Positions 1 through 56,427 of a stretch of 64,000 bases of DNA are shown here, one piece after another. Position numbers and translations under genes: made by a program. The stretch is from an uncultured Gammaproteobacteria bacterium (lineage in GTDB: Bacteria; Patescibacteriota; Patescibacteriia; UBA2196; CAYSSY01), in NCBI GenBank assembly GCA_964434055.1, contig CAYSSY010000001.1, forward strand, positions 5,094 to 69,093, written 5' to 3'. The notes under the pieces are model-generated. The model saw only the letters and a program-made list of their open reading frames with translations. It did no database searches and had not been told where the DNA came from. Position 1 is the first letter of the stretch, and each line of letters opens with the position of its first letter.

Positions 1-783
1 GCAGAACTGGAGAGTCAAAAAATAAACCAGATGGTGGAATATAATTCTGGTTATACTCAAACATATTCAAACCAGGTTTATCCATACTCTAACCAATATA
101 CTCTCGGCCCGGTTTACTTTGGGGTGGCTTCTCGATATCACAGCTCCTTAGATGGTAATCCAACATCAAATGGGGAGATATATAACGAACGAAAGTTAAC
201 GGCCGCTCACCGCACATTACCTTTTAACACTTGGGTGCGAGTCACCAATATTTTTAACGGGCGGAGTGTCCTAGTCAGAATTAATGACAGAGGGCCTTTT
301 GTTAAAGGTCGAGACATTGACCTTTCAAAAGCCGCTATGTCTGAGATCGCTGACCTAAGGCAGGGTTTAGTTAGAGTTAAGATGGAGGTGATTAACATGC
401 CTCCACAGTACCAAAACTGGCCGACGCCGGGCTACTACCGGATTGTCAGCAGGTTTGGTGCTTCGCGTAGTGGGGGATTAAGAAGGCATAAGGGGATAGA
501 TATTGGCACACCAGACTATGTCCCAGTACGGTCAAGTGCGCTTGGCATTGTCGCGTGGGCAGGCCATCGTGGAAAATATGGCAACGTCGTTTATGTTCGC
601 CATCTTAACGGGTATGAAACCCGTTATGCCCACTTGAGTCGCATTCACGTGCGCTATGGCCAAATTGTAAACCAGTCTACTGTTCTTGGTTTAACTGGTC
701 AAACTGGGAATTCTACCAGCCCACACCTGCATTATGAGGTGCGCCGCTACGGCCGCGCCCTCAATCCAGTTACAATGAAGTAA
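1..783 (+). CDS. RlpA-like double-psi beta-barrel + M23 (LytM) peptidase fusion, peptidoglycan hydrolase. The reading frame is open to the window edge, so the gene is probably 5'-truncated.
   Basis: The translation has an RlpA/DPBB-like block (VRVTNIFNGRSVLVRINDRGPFV). It ends with an M23 core: GIDIGTP...GNVVYVRH...LTGQTGNSTSPHLHYEV (the HxH zinc motif). There is no stop upstream of the ATG at 31 in frame and no signal peptide after Met31. GC is about 45%, clearly above the local background. Confidence 0.7.
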   Translation, partial: AELESQKINQMVEYNSGYTQTYSNQVYPYSNQYTLGPVYFGVASRYHSSLDGNPTSNGEIYNERKLTAAHRTLPFNTWVRVTNIFNGRSVLVRINDRGPFVKGRDIDLSKAAMSEIADLRQGLVRVKMEVINMPPQYQNWPTPGYYRIVSRFGASRSGGLRRHKGIDIGTPDYVPVRSSALGIVAWAGHRGKYGNVVYVRHLNGYETRYAHLSRIHVRYGQIVNQSTVLGLTGQTGNSTSPHLHYEVRRYGRALNPVTMK

Positions 784-824
784 TTAATTCAAATAACTGT
801 TTTTCTTTAAAGAAGGAGTAAGCC

Positions 825-1430
825 ATGAAACGCAATCTGTTTTTCATCGCGATTTTGGTTCTGGTAATCGCCACTATTGTCTCTGCTCAGACCAAAATCG
901 AAGTCACCGACCCGCAGGGGTTGGTGGTTCCACAGCCGGCGTTCATCCAGTACCTTGCCTACCTGGCCGCTGACGATAGCGCCAGCCAGGCCAAGGCACG
1001 CATACTCGAAAATGTGATCGGCAAGGCACAGCTCGGGAAATTAATCACCACCTACTACACTGAGGTGGCAAAAAACCCGGGCAAGTTCGAGATTCGCGGC
1101 TCCAATGGATTCGGAGGGATCTTTGATCTCCTCTACAAAAAAAACCCGGACATCGTGAATTTGAATCAGACTCTTGCTCTGCTCCCTAACAATGTCATGG
1201 CCGGCGCCGCTGCTCGTGCCATCGACAAAAACGACGCCAACCTGCAAGTTCTCGAACATACCCGTTCGCCATGGGGCATGCCCGGCAGTACGGAAACGGT
1301 CTACAAAGGCAACTTCCAGGGCAACTATGGCGCTGGCGGGTATTCAACCGGCGGCCTGGATGCGCAGACCTTTGACGCCGCTTATCAAGCTTCGGCGGCA
1401 AGAGCGGCTGCCAAACGCCGCCTGCGCTAG
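825..1430 (+). CDS. Secreted hypothetical protein (Sec signal peptide, Ala/Gly-rich), GC-rich island gene
   Basis: AGGAG SD 8 nt upstream of the ATG. N-terminal signal peptide MKRNLFFIAILVLVIATIVSAQT. About 55% GC versus about 33% background. No recognisable domain. Confidence 0.5.
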   Translation: MKRNLFFIAILVLVIATIVSAQTKIEVTDPQGLVVPQPAFIQYLAYLAADDSASQAKARILENVIGKAQLGKLITTYYTEVAKNPGKFEIRGSNGFGGIFDLLYKKNPDIVNLNQTLALLPNNVMAGAAARAIDKNDANLQVLEHTRSPWGMPGSTETVYKGNFQGNYGAGGYSTGGLDAQTFDAAYQASAARAAAKRRLR

Positions 1431-1506: not shown

Positions 1507-1947
1507 TTAAGGATTAGTTCGAGTGGCATTTTCTAGAATCAAAAAGATAGTATAAGTCACTGAATAAGCGGCAAAAATTAACAGCAACCCGATGCCCGCA
1601 TTCTTAATGGTCTTTAAAGCGGTAGTAATTTGCTCTTCATTTCCCGCGGCAGTCATCCAGCGAACGCCAGCAATAACAATCAAGACTAAAAATATAATAC
1701 CCACTAAAGATAAAACAAAACGCACGCCCTGAGCGATCACTAATGGTAATGGTAAATTGGAAACCTGAAAACCCAAACGTCCCATAACTTCGCCAATCTT
1801 TGAAGTTATCTCGCCTCTCAAACTTGTATCAGGAGGCGGGGGAGGCGGCGTACTCTGAGCCAATGAAATCTGAGGCAACAAACAGAAACAAAAAATTATT
1901 AAAATAAAAACTTTTAAACTCAAAATGGCTTTGTTGTTATAATTCAT
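1507..1947 (-). CDS. T4SS-pilin-like (VirB2/TrbC-like) small secreted two-helix protein, paralog 1 of tandem array
   Basis: Sec signal peptide (ISLAQS cleavage region), a poly-Pro linker, then two hydrophobic helices flanking the conserved motif VRWMTAAGNEEQ. Shares its core with the next three ORFs. Confidence 0.55.
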   Translation of the reverse strand: MNYNNKAILSLKVFILIIFCFCLLPQISLAQSTPPPPPPDTSLRGEITSKIGEVMGRLGFQVSNLPLPLVIAQGVRFVLSLVGIIFLVLIVIAGVRWMTAAGNEEQITTALKTIKNAGIGLLLIFAAYSVTYTIFLILENATRTNP

Positions 1948-1952
1948 AAATT

Positions 1953-2393
1953 TTAAGGAGTTGGGGTTGTTACTGGCGTAGTCGCTTTAAAAAGGATGTC
2001 AATCACAAACCAGGTAATGATCCCTGATAAGAAGATAACTACCAAACCGCCAGCGGCATTTACAATAATCTTATGAGCTTTTTCAATATGTTGCTCATTA
2101 CCGCCAGCCGTCATCCAAATGACGCCACCATAAATAATCAAAACAAAAAATATTACTCCGAGCAATCCTAAAAGATAAAAAATAACATCGCCAATGACTT
2201 CAGCCAGCCTAATATCCTCTCCGGAAGCGGTGGAATAGCCAGCCTGACCAGCAGTTTGATTTAACATATCACCGGCCTGATCAACACTGGGCACAGGTTC
2301 CTCTGCTGTTTGTGCTAAGAGCTCGGGTATAAAAATACTTGAAGTAAAAATTATAATCAAAGCTAGAACTAAATAGGAAATTATATTTTTCAT
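1953..2393 (-). CDS. T4SS-pilin-like small secreted two-helix protein, paralog 2
   Basis: Signal peptide, variable N-terminal region, and the core GGVIWMTAGGNEQHIEKAHKIIVNAAGGLVVIF. Confidence 0.55.
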   Translation of the reverse strand: MKNIISYLVLALIIIFTSSIFIPELLAQTAEEPVPSVDQAGDMLNQTAGQAGYSTASGEDIRLAEVIGDVIFYLLGLLGVIFFVLIIYGGVIWMTAGGNEQHIEKAHKIIVNAAGGLVVIFLSGIITWFVIDILFKATTPVTTPTP

Positions 2394-2408
2394 ATTATAA
2401 CATTTAAT

Positions 2409-2846
2409 TTAAGTGGCGGGGGTAGAAATCTTGGAAAGATTAACTATTCGGTCTAAAACATAAGCGGTAATCACATAAGCTAAAACTATGATCACTAAAC
2501 CAATCGTTGCATTAATTACAATCTTTTTACCTTTGCCAACTTGTTCCTCGTTGCCCGCCGCCGTCATCCAGGTAAACCCACCAAAAATAATTAAAATAAA
2601 AAAAATTACACCCAGAAAACCTAAAACAACGCGGATCATGTTACCAATAAAAATCGCTAAACTTGGATCAGAACCCTTTTCAATTAAACCACCTTTTTCT
2701 GCAGTATTTTTTAAAGTATTAATCGGGTTAACTTGCTGAGCGGAAACGAATAATGGCTGGACTAAAAAAACAAAACAAACAGAAATGACCAAAGCTGATA
2801 AAAAGTATTTTTTAAAATAAGGCATAGGGACTTTGATAATTTTCAA
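2409..2846 (-). CDS. T4SS-pilin-like small secreted two-helix protein, paralog 3. The track start is TTG; an alternative ATG start is at 2825.
   Basis: Core GGFTWMTAAGNEEQVGKGKKIVINATIGLVIIV. The upstream region carries the AATTTTCAATT repeats. Confidence 0.5.
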   Translation of the reverse strand: MKIIKVPMPYFKKYFLSALVISVCFVFLVQPLFVSAQQVNPINTLKNTAEKGGLIEKGSDPSLAIFIGNMIRVVLGFLGVIFFILIIFGGFTWMTAAGNEEQVGKGKKIVINATIGLVIIVLAYVITAYVLDRIVNLSKISTPAT

Positions 2847-17200: not shown

Positions 17201-17638
17201 ATGAAAGATAACAAAAATAAAAGACTTATGGTGGGGGTTGTTGTTGGTGTAGTTATTAAAAAAAACAACCACTATCTTCTGGTCCAGGAAAAGAAAAAAG
17301 AAGTTTATGGTTTATGGAATTTACCGGCCGGTCATGTTGATGTCGGCGAAACATTAGAAGCCGCTGCCAAGAGAGAAGCTAGGGAAGAAACTGGTTTCAA
17401 AGTTAAAATTTTAAAGCACATTTTAATGCGCATTAAAGTTCATCATGATGGAAATGAATCAAATATTAAATATGTTTATCAAGGGAAAATTGTCAGTGGA
17501 AAAATAAATTTTCCAAAGGATGAAATTCTTGATGTAAAATGGTTTACTTTTAATGAAATAATGAAAATGAAAAACAAACTTAGAAACATTTGGGTTATTG
17601 ATTCCATTAAACTAGCAAAAAAATATGAACTTAAATAG
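17201..17638 (+). CDS. NUDIX hydrolase
   Basis: Nudix box GHVDVGETLEAAAKREAREETGF. Confidence 0.8.
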   Translation: MKDNKNKRLMVGVVVGVVIKKNNHYLLVQEKKKEVYGLWNLPAGHVDVGETLEAAAKREAREETGFKVKILKHILMRIKVHHDGNESNIKYVYQGKIVSGKINFPKDEILDVKWFTFNEIMKMKNKLRNIWVIDSIKLAKKYELK

Positions 17639-18401
17639 AGAAAAACAAGTTGCTCTTTTGGCAGCTAAAAAAGCCGGGGCAGAACTTTTAAAACATTTTA
17701 CTAAAATCAGCCGCGCAGTTATCAAAACTAAAAGCAAGCATGAAATTATTACGCCGGCTGATTTGGCTTCGGAAAAAATCATCCTAAATTTAATCAAAAA
17801 AAAATTCCCTAGCCATGCTATTCTTTCAGAAGAAGCCGGACAGAATAAAAAACATTCTGATTATCTGTGGGTAATTGATCCTTTAGATGGCACAACAAAT
17901 TTTGCTATGGGCAATCCTCTTTTTTCCATATCTATAGCTCTTGCTTATAAAAACGAAGTGGTAATGGGACTTGTGACAGCGCCTTACTTAAAAGAAATTT
18001 ATTTGGCAACAAAAAATCATGGCGCTTTTTTAAACGGAAAAAAAATTAGTGTTTCTCAAGAAAGAGAAATTACAAATTCGCTTCTAACATACTGCCATGG
18101 TAACAATAACCAAAGTATCAAGCGTGCCATCAAAATTCATAGTCGTTTAAAATTTCTAGCTCGAGACATCAGACAGATTGGTTCAGCAGCCATTGAGATG
18201 ACCTGGGTCGCACGAGGCAGAACTGATGCTATTATTATTCCAGGTGTCAGACCTTGGGACATTGCCGCTGGCGTTCTTATAGTGCTTGAAGCTAATGGCC
18301 AAGTTACAGACTTAAAAGGCGAGACGTGGCATTTAAAAACCAACGATGTTTACGCCAGTAATGGATTGGTGCACGACAAATTACTAAAATTAATCCAATA
18401 A
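17625..18401 (+). CDS. Inositol monophosphatase family protein (SuhB-like)
   Basis: WVIDPLDGTTNFAMG and LSEEAG motifs. Overlaps the NUDIX gene by 14 nt. Confidence 0.8.
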   Translation: MNLNREKQVALLAAKKAGAELLKHFTKISRAVIKTKSKHEIITPADLASEKIILNLIKKKFPSHAILSEEAGQNKKHSDYLWVIDPLDGTTNFAMGNPLFSISIALAYKNEVVMGLVTAPYLKEIYLATKNHGAFLNGKKISVSQEREITNSLLTYCHGNNNQSIKRAIKIHSRLKFLARDIRQIGSAAIEMTWVARGRTDAIIIPGVRPWDIAAGVLIVLEANGQVTDLKGETWHLKTNDVYASNGLVHDKLLKLIQ

Positions 18402-18868: not shown

Positions 18869-20635
18869 TTATTTTTTCTCCTCCAACTTGAGTCTGAATA
18901 ATAACTGCCAAAGATATGTTTGTAATTTGCCATAACTCCAAGTCTGGTTATCAATCCACGTATCGCCCCCTGCCAACACCTTTTCCAGATGATTAACAAC
19001 CGCTTGCCAACCACCAACTTCTCTGCTCACCTCTTCATTGATCACAAAAGGGTCAAAATCTGCAACTGTCTCTGCTATGGGAAGAATGTGGCAAGCACAA
19101 TAGAAAGATTCAGCTAAACCAGCTTCTTCATCTCCGATCGCACCAGCTGCTTCATACAATGAGTCAGCAAAGTCTTGGATTTCAGTGACTGAATACTCCG
19201 GTACCACAGTTGGGCCGCAAATATAGATTGTACCTTGACCAGTAGTGGCATCGTTGACCACTTCAATTGGTACCTGCCAAACCTTGATACAGCGATCAAA
19301 TTTGGCACAGCACTCAAGCTGATGTAAAAACGCCAAGTCAGTCTCAGTACCAATAAATAAGATATCCTCTCGGCTGCAGATCTGCTGAAAATGTTGTCCA
19401 CCGCGACCGCTAGTGTGGTTAAGAGAAGGGAGACCGGCGGAAATATGACCCACAGTATTATACTGAAGTTCCACTAACGCAGCAGCGTTATTGAAATGGG
19501 TATAACTTAACGTTGGAACACGTTCAAAGGATAATCCGGCCACTAAAGGACCAAAGCCAGAAAAACCTGTCTGGGGTACTATCAGCAGATAATTTTTGAG
19601 GATACCGTTAAGATATTCTAGCCAAGAAACATTTTCGTGCGTCCAACCATGTAAACCAGCCCGAACTACAACCTGACAAAACTTCTTGCCATGATTCACG
19701 ATGTCGGTCCCTTGGCACAAAATTACTTTACCTGTGGCTTCATGTGAAATCGGGTCAGGAATTTTATCCTCAAATGGTGCTGCTTGCACAACGGTGATCG
19801 CATCTGGATTAGTATCCGGTGTAGCCCATTCGAGATAATAATTTTTCTGGATTTTAAGTAAGCGCAACGCCTCCCAGAATTTTATCAGTGGCTCGGGTGA
19901 AAAACATCGCCGTAATTCATCAGGCACTGGAATTTCTTCACACTGTCCAGATTCAACATTTATTGCCTGTAAAGTACAAAGATGACTGAGGTTGTAACTG
20001 ATATCAAACATGGTTGGCAACTCTTTGCTAATAACCACCGCTTCAGAATCAACTGCTTTTGTCCCTAAACCCAGACAAACTCGGATTAAACGCTGACCTC
20101 CATAACTCGTGTAAGCACTGCCTGCCAGAAGCGGACAAAAGTACTTACCATAATGACGACCGACCACTGATTGAATCATGACTGCAATACCAAAAGGTGT
20201 ATAGTGTTTTTGGCGATAAGCTCTGGCGTCAGCGCTAAACTCACTGGCAAAAACTGTACATTCAGCCTGCCACAGGAGTTCAAGATTTGATTCCTGGTTT
20301 GCTTTGGGCACAATGAAAACTGTTTTATAAATACCAGTACCGCCCCGCTCACCTCTGGCTGAGGAACGGACAGCTACTGGATAACCTGTTTTGAACCCTG
20401 AAACTAATTCCTGATTAATTGTCAGAAGATCTGGCGGAATTCTGCCACTCAGAACCTGATCTTGATCAGTGTTTTGCTCAAAACCGTTTGTTGCCAAAAA
20501 AGATAAAAAATATTCAACCCCTACTATCTCACCGATAATCGCCTGTAAACCAGCCTGAGATACATCTTGAACAGCGTCTAACAAATCTTGAAATTTGAGA
20601 CCGCCGTCCTGACCGTGTAATTTGTAAAGAGCCAT
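18869..20635 (-). CDS. PEP synthase / pyruvate-phosphate-dikinase-like protein: N-terminal ATP-grasp (PPDK_N-type) domain plus a possible degenerate swivel-His segment. It lacks the C-terminal PEP-binding TIM barrel. GC-rich, likely foreign.
   Basis: PVAVRSSARGE...VFASEFSADARAYR...GIAVMIQSVV...CLGLGTKAV aligns block-wise to the PPDK_N consensus (VAVRSSA, VFASLF..R...YR, AWGLGE). Later, TSGRGGQHFQQICSRED resembles the GGxxSHAAIxARE phospho-His motif. About 47% GC. The track start is TTG; the start was moved to ATG 20635, which has an AAGGAG SD. Terminator hairpin at 18833-18856. Confidence 0.5.
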   Translation of the reverse strand: MALYKLHGQDGGLKFQDLLDAVQDVSQAGLQAIIGEIVGVEYFLSFLATNGFEQNTDQDQVLSGRIPPDLLTINQELVSGFKTGYPVAVRSSARGERGGTGIYKTVFIVPKANQESNLELLWQAECTVFASEFSADARAYRQKHYTPFGIAVMIQSVVGRHYGKYFCPLLAGSAYTSYGGQRLIRVCLGLGTKAVDSEAVVISKELPTMFDISYNLSHLCTLQAINVESGQCEEIPVPDELRRCFSPEPLIKFWEALRLLKIQKNYYLEWATPDTNPDAITVVQAAPFEDKIPDPISHEATGKVILCQGTDIVNHGKKFCQVVVRAGLHGWTHENVSWLEYLNGILKNYLLIVPQTGFSGFGPLVAGLSFERVPTLSYTHFNNAAALVELQYNTVGHISAGLPSLNHTSGRGGQHFQQICSREDILFIGTETDLAFLHQLECCAKFDRCIKVWQVPIEVVNDATTGQGTIYICGPTVVPEYSVTEIQDFADSLYEAAGAIGDEEAGLAESFYCACHILPIAETVADFDPFVINEEVSREVGGWQAVVNHLEKVLAGGDTWIDNQTWSYGKLQTYLWQLLFRLKLEEKK

Positions 20636-20897
20636 CTTAGTCTCCTTCAATTTTATTTTCCATAATCTCAACAGTCACATGTTACTTGAAGGTCAAAAAC
20701 TTGTCAATTTAAACTTTGATTATCATGACCCCAAACACAATTAAATAAAAGATCTAATTATTGGTTTTAATGCTAGTATTTTCAAGATTTTGACTAAATT
20801 GAAAAAACAAACCCTTGACAAGTAGCCAACTAACTCTACTATTAATATTAATAATTTTTCAATTCTAATAATTACCTATTAAAATCAGTATTAATTT

Positions 20898-53678: not shown

Positions 53679-53730
53679 TCTCTCTTTTCCAAATTTCCAA
53701 TTAAAAACAGCGGGGAAGCTCCACTGTTTT

Positions 53731-54768
53731 TTAGTCCAATTTTCTTACAGATCCACTCGAAGTATCAACTTCGACCAAATCACCGTCATTAAAAATTTGT
53801 GTAGCACATCGTGTTCCAACAACACAAGGAATTCCTAGCTCACGGGAAATGATGGCAGCATGACACATCAAACCGCCCTCATCAGTCACTATCGCTTTAA
53901 CATATTTCAATACTGGCACCAACTGCGGGTTGGTCATGCCAGTAATTAAGATACAATCTTGAGGTAAATCAGGAACGTGACTAAACGACAAATGCAGTTT
54001 AGCACGACCAACTACTTTTTCATTGACCTGATAGGAAACCCGTCCGGTAACTTTTTTTTCAGTCTTATTAACAGACAATTTATCCCTTAAACCCAAATAT
54101 TCATGATCAGTGTGTATGACCCAGTTTTTTCTAAAAACATAACCGCTTTTTCTTTGTAAGAGTGCTGGGGCATTAACAAATTTTTTATTAAAAATCAAAT
54201 TACTAAATTCATCAAAAGTCATAATCTCGATGTCGTCTAGCGCAATTTGAAACTCTTTGCCGGCTTTGATAATCACCTTTTCAAAAAGCAGATGCAAGAC
54301 ACTTAGATAATGGTGAGCCTTTAATCTAAACTGGCCGATAAACTCCAAACGTTTATAGATTCCGGTATTATCTTTTTGTTCTTCCAATGATAAGAGTGAC
54401 GATTCCTCACATAAAACATAGACATCGCATATGTCTTTTATATATGCCAAAAGCATCTGCCACCATTCATTAAAGTACTTACTATCAAATTTGGGAATTT
54501 GTGTTTGGTTAATTTTATCTATCACGACAAACTTTTGTTTCAGTTCATTAAATATTTCCTGCCACTGATCATTGTCTAGTAGATACCGCTTACCCATTAA
54601 ATAAGCTTGCTCCATGCCCGCTTTTGTCAAATAAACAGAGAAAGCTTTCTGTTCACCATCATAAAGGCAAACATAGTCATTATTACCATAATCAGTCTTT
54701 TCGAATAGATAGCTGACCAACGGTAATGGAAACTGTTCTTTAAAATTTAAATAATATTCTTGATTCAT
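53731..54768 (-). CDS. Protein with C-terminal PEP-utilising-enzyme mobile (swivel phospho-His) domain. The N-terminal 250 aa are uncharacterised.
   Basis: ITGMTNPQLVPVLKYVKAIVTDEGGLMCHAAIISRELGIPCVVG matches the GGxxSHAAIxARExGIPxVVG consensus. Confidence 0.6.
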   Translation of the reverse strand: MNQEYYLNFKEQFPLPLVSYLFEKTDYGNNDYVCLYDGEQKAFSVYLTKAGMEQAYLMGKRYLLDNDQWQEIFNELKQKFVVIDKINQTQIPKFDSKYFNEWWQMLLAYIKDICDVYVLCEESSLLSLEEQKDNTGIYKRLEFIGQFRLKAHHYLSVLHLLFEKVIIKAGKEFQIALDDIEIMTFDEFSNLIFNKKFVNAPALLQRKSGYVFRKNWVIHTDHEYLGLRDKLSVNKTEKKVTGRVSYQVNEKVVGRAKLHLSFSHVPDLPQDCILITGMTNPQLVPVLKYVKAIVTDEGGLMCHAAIISRELGIPCVVGTRCATQIFNDGDLVEVDTSSGSVRKLD

Positions 54769-54876
54769 ATTTTTATTATCTTGCGCCGGTCAAACATTAA
54801 TAATAAACTTAACCGGTCCAGTTTAACAAAAATTATTGGAGCAGACAGACAAAGTGCATCTGTCTGCTCCTGTGTG

Positions 54877-55464
54877 CTAACTGCTTTTAACCTCCTCTAA
54901 GGAAATCGTTGACAATTTACCTGTTTCCAGATCGTAACGGAAGCAGTGAATGGATCCCGGCTTTGGTGCAAACACCTCATAAACACGTAGATAATGATCT
55001 TCATCTACTGGAATAATCCCGTTTGCTAGTGTATATAATGGTACGATGTATGCGCCACTTCCCACCAGCAACGCCCGACCACCTTCTGATAATCGCTCAG
55101 CCAAATTTCGGATAATCACCTTCGCTATCGGCTCGTACTCATCAATGAGTCGGTCACCGGCGCCTTCAGGATACAACTTGCCACATTTACTGTTTGTACG
55201 AGGATCAAGACGAGTGTCACACACTCGTTTTCTATAATTTACTCTGGTTTCAATGTGTGACCATGTCTCCCGCATCCGCTGTAAAGCACCATGAGCCACG
55301 AGATCGAACTCCATTCCCTCCACTTGTTCTGCAGCGCCGTCTCCTTGAGCGTGTCCGTCTGATGAAAGACCGGCATCACCCGATTCTAACCTTTCAATGT
55401 CATCCGCCGACGTATCGCCGTGGCGTACGAAGACGATGTCTATAAACTTTTTGGTCGTTTCCAT
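54877..55464 (-). CDS. Histidine-phosphatase-superfamily (PGAM-like, RHG motif) protein, GC-rich gene
   Basis: IVFVRHGDT (RHG), SSDGHAQG. About 52% GC. AAGGAG SD. Lies immediately upstream of the swivel-His gene in the same orientation. Confidence 0.55.
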   Translation of the reverse strand: METTKKFIDIVFVRHGDTSADDIERLESGDAGLSSDGHAQGDGAAEQVEGMEFDLVAHGALQRMRETWSHIETRVNYRKRVCDTRLDPRTNSKCGKLYPEGAGDRLIDEYEPIAKVIIRNLAERLSEGGRALLVGSGAYIVPLYTLANGIIPVDEDHYLRVYEVFAPKPGSIHCFRYDLETGKLSTISLEEVKSS

Positions 55465-55645
55465 TTTAATTCTCCTTATAAAAGGTTGTTTGGTATTTTT
55501 GTTGGCAAAGAACTATTTTTAATTTAACCGTCCATTATACTGCCAATTGTTGTTTGTGTCAATAATTATGGCAAAAGTAAATATTACATTAATCGCTAAA
55601 ATTAGATAAAAATTAATAAATTTATTATTGGTGTTGTCAGAAATA

Positions 55646-55674
55646 TTGACATAATGAAGCTTGGGTTTTATATT
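55646..55674 (+). promoter_or_regulatory. Promoter TTGACA-N17-TATATT. The -10 ends 6 nt before the ATG at 55681, implying a leaderless transcript.
   Basis: ttgaca at 55646-51 and tatatt at 55669-74. The ATG is at 55681 with no SD. Confidence 0.45.
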
Positions 55675-55680
55675 ATCTAT

Positions 55681-56427
55681 ATGGCAGTTGAAGAAAAAAT
55701 TTTAATTGACTTGGGTCTGTCACCCACCGAAGCCCAGGTTTATTTAGCCGCCTTAGAATTAGTCAGCGACACTGTTTTAAATATCGCAAAAAGGGCAGGT
55801 GTAAAACGGCCAACTTGCTATATAACTCTGGATAATCTTTTTCAAAAAGGTTATGTCAGTAAAATTGAAAAAGAAAACACCACACTATATAGTGCAGAAA
55901 AGCCCTCATTTATTTTAAACAAGTTCAAAGAAAAAATTGATAATTTTAAAGACTTATTACCTTTCTTTGAAGCCAAGTTCAACAATGGGCCCAAACCTAA
56001 GATAAGATATTACGAAGGACGGGAAGAACTGTGGAATGTATACACAAAAATTTTATTTCCGGCCAAAGAGATTTATTTTTTTGGTACCAATGTTGAAAAA
56101 ATTATGCAACATTTTTCAAATCTCTTTGATTACTGGATTAAGAATTATGTCAGTAAATACGATAAAGTGTTGGAGATTGTATCCTATAATGAAGCGGGTC
56201 TAAAATACCAAAAAGATTATGGTGATAAATGGCAAATAAAAATTATGCCCAAAAACCTCCCAGTCTTTGCTGACTCAGTGATCACTGAGGATAAACTATT
56301 TATTGTCTCAATTGATAATTTATTTGGTGTTCTAATTGAATCAGAGGATTTGGCAAAGACATACAAAAATTTTTTTATGCTAGCCTGGCAAGCAAATGAT
56401 AATAAACATAAAATTATCAACAACTAA
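55681..56427 (+). CDS. TrmB-family HTH transcriptional regulator
   Basis: LGLSPTEAQVYLAALELVSDTVLNIAKRAGVKRPTCYITLDNLFQKGYV, an N-terminal wHTH of TrmB type. Terminator at 56447-56474. Confidence 0.6.
   Translation: MAVEEKILIDLGLSPTEAQVYLAALELVSDTVLNIAKRAGVKRPTCYITLDNLFQKGYVSKIEKENTTLYSAEKPSFILNKFKEKIDNFKDLLPFFEAKFNNGPKPKIRYYEGREELWNVYTKILFPAKEIYFFGTNVEKIMQHFSNLFDYWIKNYVSKYDKVLEIVSYNEAGLKYQKDYGDKWQIKIMPKNLPVFADSVITEDKLFIVSIDNLFGVLIESEDLAKTYKNFFMLAWQANDNKHKIINN

Follow-up and report, generated by a model that had tools for sequence, protein, structure and literature searches.

A candidate split-dikinase subunit encoded next to a histidine phosphatase in a bacterium of the candidate phyla radiation

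What is the function of a protein that joins a phosphohistidine swivel domain to a long N-terminal domain of its own kind, and why is it encoded beside a histidine phosphatase? The question is raised by a locus in contig CAYSSY010000001.1 from an uncultured candidate phyla radiation (CPR) bacterium, of which we analyzed a stretch of 64,000 nt, referred to here as the window; all coordinates are relative to it. The locus is a three-gene cassette consisting of a TrmB-like regulator and, divergent from it, a histidine phosphatase and the swivel protein, which we term X–swivel after its N-terminal domain X. An earlier note made from the letters of the sequence, in the following the original prediction, had delineated the latter two open reading frames as we find them, with 195 residues for the phosphatase (54877..55464, minus strand) and 345 residues for the X–swivel protein (53731..54768, minus strand). 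We favor, with modest confidence, the interpretation that X–swivel is the carrier and substrate subunit of a split dikinase of the RPH type, with its ATP-grasp component encoded elsewhere, coupled to a phosphatase for the same metabolite and placed under a TrmB-like repressor.

The open reading frame of the X–swivel protein, its AlphaFold model (pLDDT 95.6, pTM 0.92) and an alignment of its homologues agree on two domains in one chain, the architecture of a dikinase component. Domain X comprises residues 1-250 (54019..54768, minus strand) and folds into a small alpha/beta unit followed by a long helical bundle, while the swivel domain occupies residues 269-339 (53752..53964, minus strand) and matches PF00391 with E=1.7e-23 and 82.5 bits against a cutoff of 23.1. 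This is the sole Pfam match in the protein and bears out the C-terminal phosphoenolpyruvate (PEP)-utilising mobile domain of the original prediction. The C-terminal end of the protein reads ...TDEGGLMCHAAIISRELGIPCVVG, and its loop T295DEGGLMCH303AAIISRE contains the motif T295-D-E-G-G-L-M-C-H303, so that the catalytic histidine, encoded at 53860..53862 on the minus strand, belongs to a loop of the T/S-x-x-G-G-x-x-x-H type, and the surrounding fold is a beta/beta/alpha sandwich. In an alignment of 55 relatives His303 is invariant, and several residues of the X domain are conserved as well.

The N-terminal 250 residues had been called novel, and this holds insofar as the N-terminal domain of none of the 55 homologues is covered by a Pfam family. 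It does not hold for the whole stretch, however, as residues 177-344 align to the C-terminal end (approximately positions 700-868) of proteins of the rifampin phosphotransferase type. The NCBIfam models for PpsA, PPDK and PtsI matched the swivel stretch only and remained far below their cutoffs, and apart from PF00391 we found neither a PEP/pyruvate-binding TIM barrel (PEP-utilizers_C) nor an ATP-grasp or HPr-binding domain. We considered that the gene might be a fragment of PpsA or of Enzyme I of the phosphotransferase system (PTS) produced by an assembly break, and rejected this because the reading frame is complete and its length is kept in at least 55 homologues; moreover, it has other genes on either side of it on long contigs and is itself identical in four assemblies. 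PADLOC returned no match for the swivel or the phosphatase protein, and its application to all cassette proteins yielded no defence system, only weak winged helix-turn-helix matches of the regulator.

Relatives of the X–swivel protein number in the hundreds at full length, with 340-380 residues, and the minority with a named source come, according to their annotation, from CPR bacteria or DPANN archaea. At least 597 GTDB species-representative stretches encode a relative (597 of 600 among the matches listed). Note that a single-sequence search with the X domain alone gave 17 matches and is insensitive, so that this figure is not a measure of the size of the wider family. Among the matches listed, the best species-representative relatives are fused proteins of 693-833 residues, in which a PPDK_N ATP-grasp domain (E~1e-100) forms the N-terminal part and the rest aligns to the whole 345-residue query. 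Such PPDK_N–X–swivel fusions occur in Kaiserbacteria, Peregrinibacteria and Saccharibacteria.

We further took a census of 86 distinct related CPR/DPANN loci containing an X–swivel gene, in which reading frames were called with flanks of about 6 kb. A canonical ATP-grasp protein (PF01326) was found fused or alongside in 30 of the 86, fused to X–swivel in 13 cases and as a stand-alone protein of about 315 residues within about 6 kb in the other 17, while the remaining 56 loci have none inside the fetched flanks. The window holds only a divergent protein of another clade. That the X–swivel protein would be one half of a split PEP-synthase-like system, as had been proposed, is supported by the alignment of its full length to the C-terminal half of the fused proteins and by the 17 loci in which a stand-alone ATP-grasp adjoins X–swivel.

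The family also shows a variety of other arrangements. Tandem arrays of X–swivel genes are common, with up to nine genes within 12 kb and two size classes of about 350 and about 480-500 residues. The largest are those of loci L037 (nine genes), L020 (eight) and L018, L038, L039 and L088 (seven each), with many others, and all genes of an array point the same way, the stop codon of one often overlapping the start codon of the next; we found no description in the literature of tandem arrays of swivel-domain genes in CPR or DPANN organisms. Locus L094 (8688..9871, minus strand) encodes a 280-residue protein with a faint match to the Pfam family Rph_4th, followed by a separate swivel-only protein of 114 residues; the module can thus also be divided at another point. 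Two swivel domains share a single chain in L013 (4405..7104, 899 residues) and L043 (4231..6840, 869 residues), and archaeal giants with ATP-grasp and swivel domains are encoded in L029 (4327..10386, 2019 residues) and L055 (2770..11673, 2967 residues).

The closest known counterparts are the two-component small-molecule dikinases HpeHI, CreHI and PpsAB (phenylphosphate synthase), all of them characterised by experiment, in which, as exemplified by the Hpe pair, one protein (HpeH) contains the substrate and swivel domains and the other (HpeI) the ATP-grasp domain (PMC12167813). As in these systems, the ATP-grasp would be split from a protein with a presumed substrate domain and a C-terminal swivel, and the T/SxxGGxxxH motif is shared. 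HpeH, CreH and PpsA, however, have about 600-650 residues and an RPH-like substrate domain, whereas the component in the window has 345, with an X domain in which no similarity to theirs was detected; the models NF006153/PRK08296 match residues 250-344 only. The partner ATP-grasp is also not adjacent, the lineage is CPR/DPANN rather than aromatic-degrading bacteria, and the pairing with a histidine phosphatase and a TrmB regulator has not been described for any of the three. In RPH itself the domain order is ATP-grasp, substrate domain, swivel (PDB 5HV1/5FBS; PMC4844700). The X–swivel protein shares the order of a presumed substrate domain followed by a C-terminal swivel, its residues 177-344 align to about positions 700-866 of RPH, and its fused relatives display the full ATP-grasp–X–swivel order, but its own chain contains no ATP-grasp, its X domain has 250 residues as opposed to the approximately 450 of the rifampin (RIF)-binding domain, with only the last 70-90 X residues matching, and it has no known link to antibiotics. 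In sequence, the swivel domain is closest to PEP synthases (8a8e, 148 bits), with which it shares the principle of a swivelling phosphohistidine; unlike PEP synthase and PPDK, the protein has no TIM barrel and no ATP-grasp, and its swivel is C-terminal rather than central.

By analogy with these enzymes, the ATP-grasp component would pyrophosphorylate or phosphorylate His303 on the mobile C-terminal domain. The phosphorylated swivel domain would then swing back onto the N-terminal X domain, the presumed second-substrate site, and phosphate would pass to a hydroxyl of a small molecule bound there, for a net reaction of ATP + substrate + H2O -> AMP + Pi + substrate-P. For the donor, the best candidate we can infer is a canonical PPDK_N protein of its own, with about 315 residues and encoded elsewhere in the genome, as in many related CPR/DPANN loci. 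The histidine phosphatase, in turn, would remove a phosphomonoester on the same metabolite, either from the product after a further step or at a different position, and kinase and phosphatase would form a pair under one sugar- or metabolite-sensing repressor of the TrmB type. A precedent for phosphorylation followed by dephosphorylation in such a module is provided by the Hpe pathway, where the phosphorylated compound is later dephosphorylated (PMC12167813).

The original prediction had a different donor in mind, namely the PPDK_N-like ATP-grasp protein that does exist 33 kb from the swivel gene (588/600 residues; 18869..20671, minus strand), as the third part of a dispersed phosphotransfer system. 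It is the sole PPDK_N-type protein in the window, and its family and the sub-clade of the swivel protein are both rare and both found in CPR, so that phosphorylation of the 345-residue swivel protein in trans deserves consideration. Nevertheless, the protein scores only 8.9 bits against a profile built from 28 ATP-grasps that neighbor or are fused to X–swivel. In four other loci of its family, neither a swivel gene nor a phosphatase gene is present within 8-10 kb. Moreover, it carries a swivel-fold domain of its own after the ATP-grasp, seen by structure only and not by Pfam or hhalign; the comparison of its family with the X–swivel family, profile against profile, was not significant (E=0.19). 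We therefore regard the distant ATP-grasp as an unlikely third part and a system of this composition as very unlikely. For the protein itself we note that the swivel-fold domain contains invariant H407 and H415 in DHTxxRGGxHFQQxCxRxDILFLG and precedes a helical domain at the C-terminus; the domains follow one another as in PEP synthase, although the last of them is of unassigned kind, and no more than 15 members make up the family. Both in the window (17625..18401) and in L091, the 588-residue gene has an inositol-monophosphatase gene nearby.

An enzyme that needs no ATP at all is also conceivable. The X–swivel protein would then be a transphosphorylase whose His303 shuttles phosphate between two small molecules, with the phosphatase supplying or removing one of the phospho-compounds. 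HpeH alone does move phosphate from 4-phosphoacetophenone to acetovanillone (PMC12167813), no ATP-grasp is encoded within 6-8 kb of any member of the closest clade, and the 56 census loci lacking one would fit. The flanks extend to only about 6 kb, however, fused or adjacent ATP-grasps are common in the wider family, and in the best GTDB relative among the matches listed, that of locus L012, the protein is fused to its ATP-grasp and accompanied by the same TrmB gene and operator. On balance we consider the ATP-independent shuttle quite unlikely.

The second part of our question concerns the phosphatase. A histidine-phosphatase-like gene is present in 35 of the 86 loci and lies within 120 bp of the swivel gene in 28. 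As evidenced by a Monte Carlo analysis with random placement in the loci that have a phosphatase, immediate adjacency to the swivel gene is seen in 29 loci where 17.2 are expected (p<5e-6), and the association is present in bacterial as well as archaeal loci. The pairing is hence recurrent and non-random, and the original prediction was right to treat it as meaningful. The R-H...R signature is invariant in 37 phosphatase-like sequences of the census, nearly all of which also have a downstream [S/T]H motif; PF00300 is matched individually by 20 of the 37, with no competing family. Most cassette phosphatases have 250-340 residues with long insertions between the core motifs, and their mean column identity is 9%. 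In two loci the phosphatase-like neighbor is itself a fusion (L041, 6615..8585, and L050, 8623..10911), one with an N-formylglutamate amidohydrolase-like and the other with a peptidase M29-like domain, which may hint at the kind of substrate.

Does this phosphatase act on a metabolite or on a protein? SixA is a small protein of the histidine phosphatase superfamily with an RHG motif that is found alongside a phosphohistidine carrier, and the cassette phosphatase might by analogy strip the phosphate from His303, or serve as a phosphohistidine acceptor, and so reset or throttle the dikinase. SixA dephosphorylates phosphohistidine on NPr as well as on Ndk's catalytic intermediate (PMC7948535, PMC12934123, PMC11974560). 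One phosphatase-like gene often accompanies several X–swivel paralogues, and as these differ in their X domains yet share a highly conserved swivel domain, a common target of the phosphatase is suggested. The window phosphatase, furthermore, is short (195 residues) and has no large cap insertion. On the other hand, no SixA-specific model was matched in NCBIfam at E<=0.1, where only models of the ribazole, PGM and PspA types appeared, all below cutoff, and in the window protein the second catalytic histidine is missing. The long insertions in most of the cassette phosphatases are typical of small-molecule enzymes in the superfamily, and their extreme divergence contrasts with the conservation of the proposed target. 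We judge a SixA-like role unlikely, if far from negligible. Plants provide an analogy for action on the product, as glucan,water dikinase, which works through a phosphohistidine intermediate, is paired with the phosphatases SEX4 and LSF2 that act on its phosphorylated product; this remains an analogy only, the systems being eukaryotic with different substrate domains and a different phosphatase family.

The phosphatase in the window is an unusual representative. It matches PF00300 with E=5.8e-8 and 33.1 bits against a cutoff of 21.7, over residues 10-78 only (profile positions 1-69 of 194), and its RHG motif, encoded at 55417..55425 and read as FVRHGDT, is in accord with what had been described. 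R14, H15 and R63 are invariant across the 37 phosphatase-like sequences and align to the motifs of dPGM and TIGAR. The second catalytic histidine of the (S/T)H(G) motif is absent, also as proposed; in a profile-profile alignment the invariant histidine of the cassette phosphatases falls on A137 in GSGAY. The same is true of all five members of the subfamily, which have no canonical second histidine and an invariant H157 in E-x-H-Y instead. It may, as the original prediction has it, be a module that binds phosphohistidine. Four of the five, including the window's copy, are short, compact and intact, with R14, H15, R63 and His157 conserved. Searches of 5.8 billion proteins returned only four relatives, at 46-49% identity, and a comparison with plasmids by tblastn gave no match. 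One relative (48% identity) stems from a bacterium of about 53% GC that does not look like a CPR member, and is encoded among genes of acyl-CoA metabolism with no swivel gene nearby. To the cassette phosphatases the protein is homologous at the superfamily level only (hhalign probability 93%, E=2.6e-7).

Its composition is equally distinct. Relative to the 57 genes of the window (mean GC 35.6%, standard deviation 4.9%), the phosphatase gene stands out with 47.4% GC (z=+2.4), below the roughly 52% given in the original prediction, while the swivel gene is entirely ordinary at 35.5% (z=0). Of the two genes proposed to be foreign, therefore, only the phosphatase appears so. In the swivel gene GC rises to 41% in the conserved C-terminal 95 codons only, where GC at third codon positions is an ordinary 31%.

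The phosphatase gene also brings its own expression signals. A promoter of the sigma-70 type (TTGACA-17-TATAAT; 55534..55562, minus strand) with 12 of 12 consensus matches lies upstream of it, and the predicted strong Shine-Dalgarno sequence is present as AAGGAG at 55472..55477 (minus strand), 8 nt ahead of the ATG. Between phosphatase and swivel gene, at 54838..54870 (minus strand), we found a G+C-rich, terminator-like hairpin with a stem of 13-14 bp, followed by AAUAAUUUUU; counted at 14 pairs, it has AATAATTTTT directly after it. Its fold has a stability of -27.2 kcal/mol (z=-3.65), equalled by none of 200 shuffled sequences, and it is identical across four independent assemblies, as is the phosphatase gene, which is intact in all of them. 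Because of the hairpin between the genes and the phosphatase's own promoter, the single operon that had been proposed is doubtful in the source genome. A second hairpin (AAAAACAGTGG...CCGCTGTTTTT) at 53700..53735, just 3' of the swivel stop codon, may terminate transcription in both directions, as it separates this gene from that of a glutamate dehydrogenase, which is convergent to it.

Given its foreign GC content, private promoter and terminator-like hairpin, the simplest reading of the window phosphatase is an in-place xenologous replacement, in which a shorter His_Phos_1 protein, acquired horizontally and non-canonical in its active site, would have taken the position of the ancestral cassette phosphatase. 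In two independent assemblies of the same organism (L001 and L003) the contigs are broken within the phosphatase gene, 26 and 41 bp in from its 3' end, and are identical to the window up to the break, which may reflect population heterogeneity or a change in coverage at the foreign gene. A variant without the phosphatase was considered and rejected as an explanation, since both contigs begin inside the identical 3' end of the same gene.

The same features could be taken to mean that a foreign gene with its own promoter and terminator was merely inserted beside an unrelated swivel gene. The GC content, the perfect promoter, the strong Shine-Dalgarno sequence and the hairpin would all fit, and the closest homologue of the phosphatase, in L010, indeed has no swivel neighbor. 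Against a coincidence stands the position of the gene. In the sub-clade to which the window protein belongs (36-51% identity), four related loci (L004, L008, L093 and L094) likewise have a histidine-phosphatase-like gene directly upstream of the swivel gene and oriented as it is, and the association of phosphatase and swivel genes is strong throughout the family. A chance insertion thus strikes us as highly improbable.

The third gene of the cassette strengthens the picture of a unit. The window shares with L093 and L094 a regulator of the TrmB family that is divergent from the phosphatase-like gene. The one in the window (55654..56427, plus strand) matches PF01978 with E=1e-13 and 51.3 bits against a cutoff of 25.6; its C-terminal effector domain matches no family. 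It is 27% identical to the regulator of L094 over the full length (E=2e-25), the homologue in L093 occupies the same position, and TrmB-like genes adjoin swivel genes in 10 loci altogether. The true start of the gene is probably the second ATG, at 55681. Note that with this start a promoter read as TTGACA-17-TATATT at 55646..55674 would give rise to a nearly leaderless transcript.

A 17-bp palindrome, TGTCAATATTTCTGACA, presumed to be the TrmB operator, is located at 55635..55651 and overlaps the -35 box of the promoter on the trmB side. It occurs once in the window, where 0.03 occurrences are expected, and the identical 17-mer is found in L093 between trmB and the phosphatase-like gene. In L012, a TGTCA-N7-TGACA variant abuts the trmB start, and here the gene under control encodes an ATP-grasp–X–swivel fusion. 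As the putative operator overlaps the -35 box of the trmB promoter, the arrangement suggests that the regulator gene is autoregulated. Judging from the shared order of the cassette, the divergent TrmB gene and the identical putative operator, the pairing of phosphatase and swivel protein is part of a conserved and probably co-regulated module.

Several points weigh against a split dikinase with a metabolite phosphatase. The 64-kb window contains no gene for a canonical partner ATP-grasp, none was found over 6-8 kb in the closest clade, and the core of the X domain (residues 1-175) is without detectable similarity to RIF-binding or HpeH substrate domains. If kinase and phosphatase acted on one metabolite and were expressed together, the cycle would be futile unless a further step came between them, and we saw no conserved third enzyme. 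The intergenic hairpin renders co-transcription of phosphatase and swivel gene in the window doubtful, and since its second catalytic histidine is missing, the window phosphatase may be inactive or do something else. Our literature searches retrieved no biochemical data on any member of the X–swivel family, and nothing relevant on the family or on a pairing of dikinase and histidine phosphatase in CPR or DPANN organisms.

We also entertain a broader conception, tentatively, as a possible if somewhat unlikely one. It envisages a modular phosphotransfer system, not described before and shared by CPR bacteria and DPANN archaea, with one ATP-grasp module, tandem arrays in which as many as nine X–swivel paralogues have diversified in their substrate domains, and a dedicated partner of the histidine-phosphatase family. 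This partner would act directly on the swivel phosphohistidine or exchange phosphate with it, as a His-to-His relay or a reset switch. TrmB and its operator would control the system in one clade, and the window would hold a foreign replacement partner that kept the RHG motif while its second histidine was moved or lost.

Elsewhere in the window, a second compositionally foreign, GC-rich patch is found at the very start (31..1430). It consists of an M23 peptidase/DPBB gene (31..783, 47% GC) and of 825..1430, encoding a 201-residue protein with no assigned family (55% GC, z=+4), and it adjoins an array of type IV secretion system (T4SS)-pilin paralogues at 1507..2846.

The class of mechanism that we favor for the X–swivel protein is already known from RPH and the two-component dikinases. 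We found no account in the searchable literature of the X domain, of the arrays across CPR and DPANN, of a conserved histidine phosphatase as partner, of the TrmB cassette and operator or of the in-place replacement. The link to RPH and HpeHI provides a testable hypothesis, namely that a stand-alone ATP-grasp protein phosphorylates His303 and that the phosphate is then transferred to a small molecule. Further handles are offered by the conserved phosphatase and, in one clade, by the regulator of the TrmB type and its defined operator; what ligand the regulator binds could point to the substrate. The apparent exchange of the phosphatase for a foreign homologue with an altered active site amounts to a natural experiment on the features that are required of the partner. 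CPR and DPANN genomes are tiny, and yet many of them contain long arrays of this one uncharacterised enzyme family; that such genomes devote long arrays to it suggests that the X–swivel family is central to their scavenging or symbiotic lifestyle.

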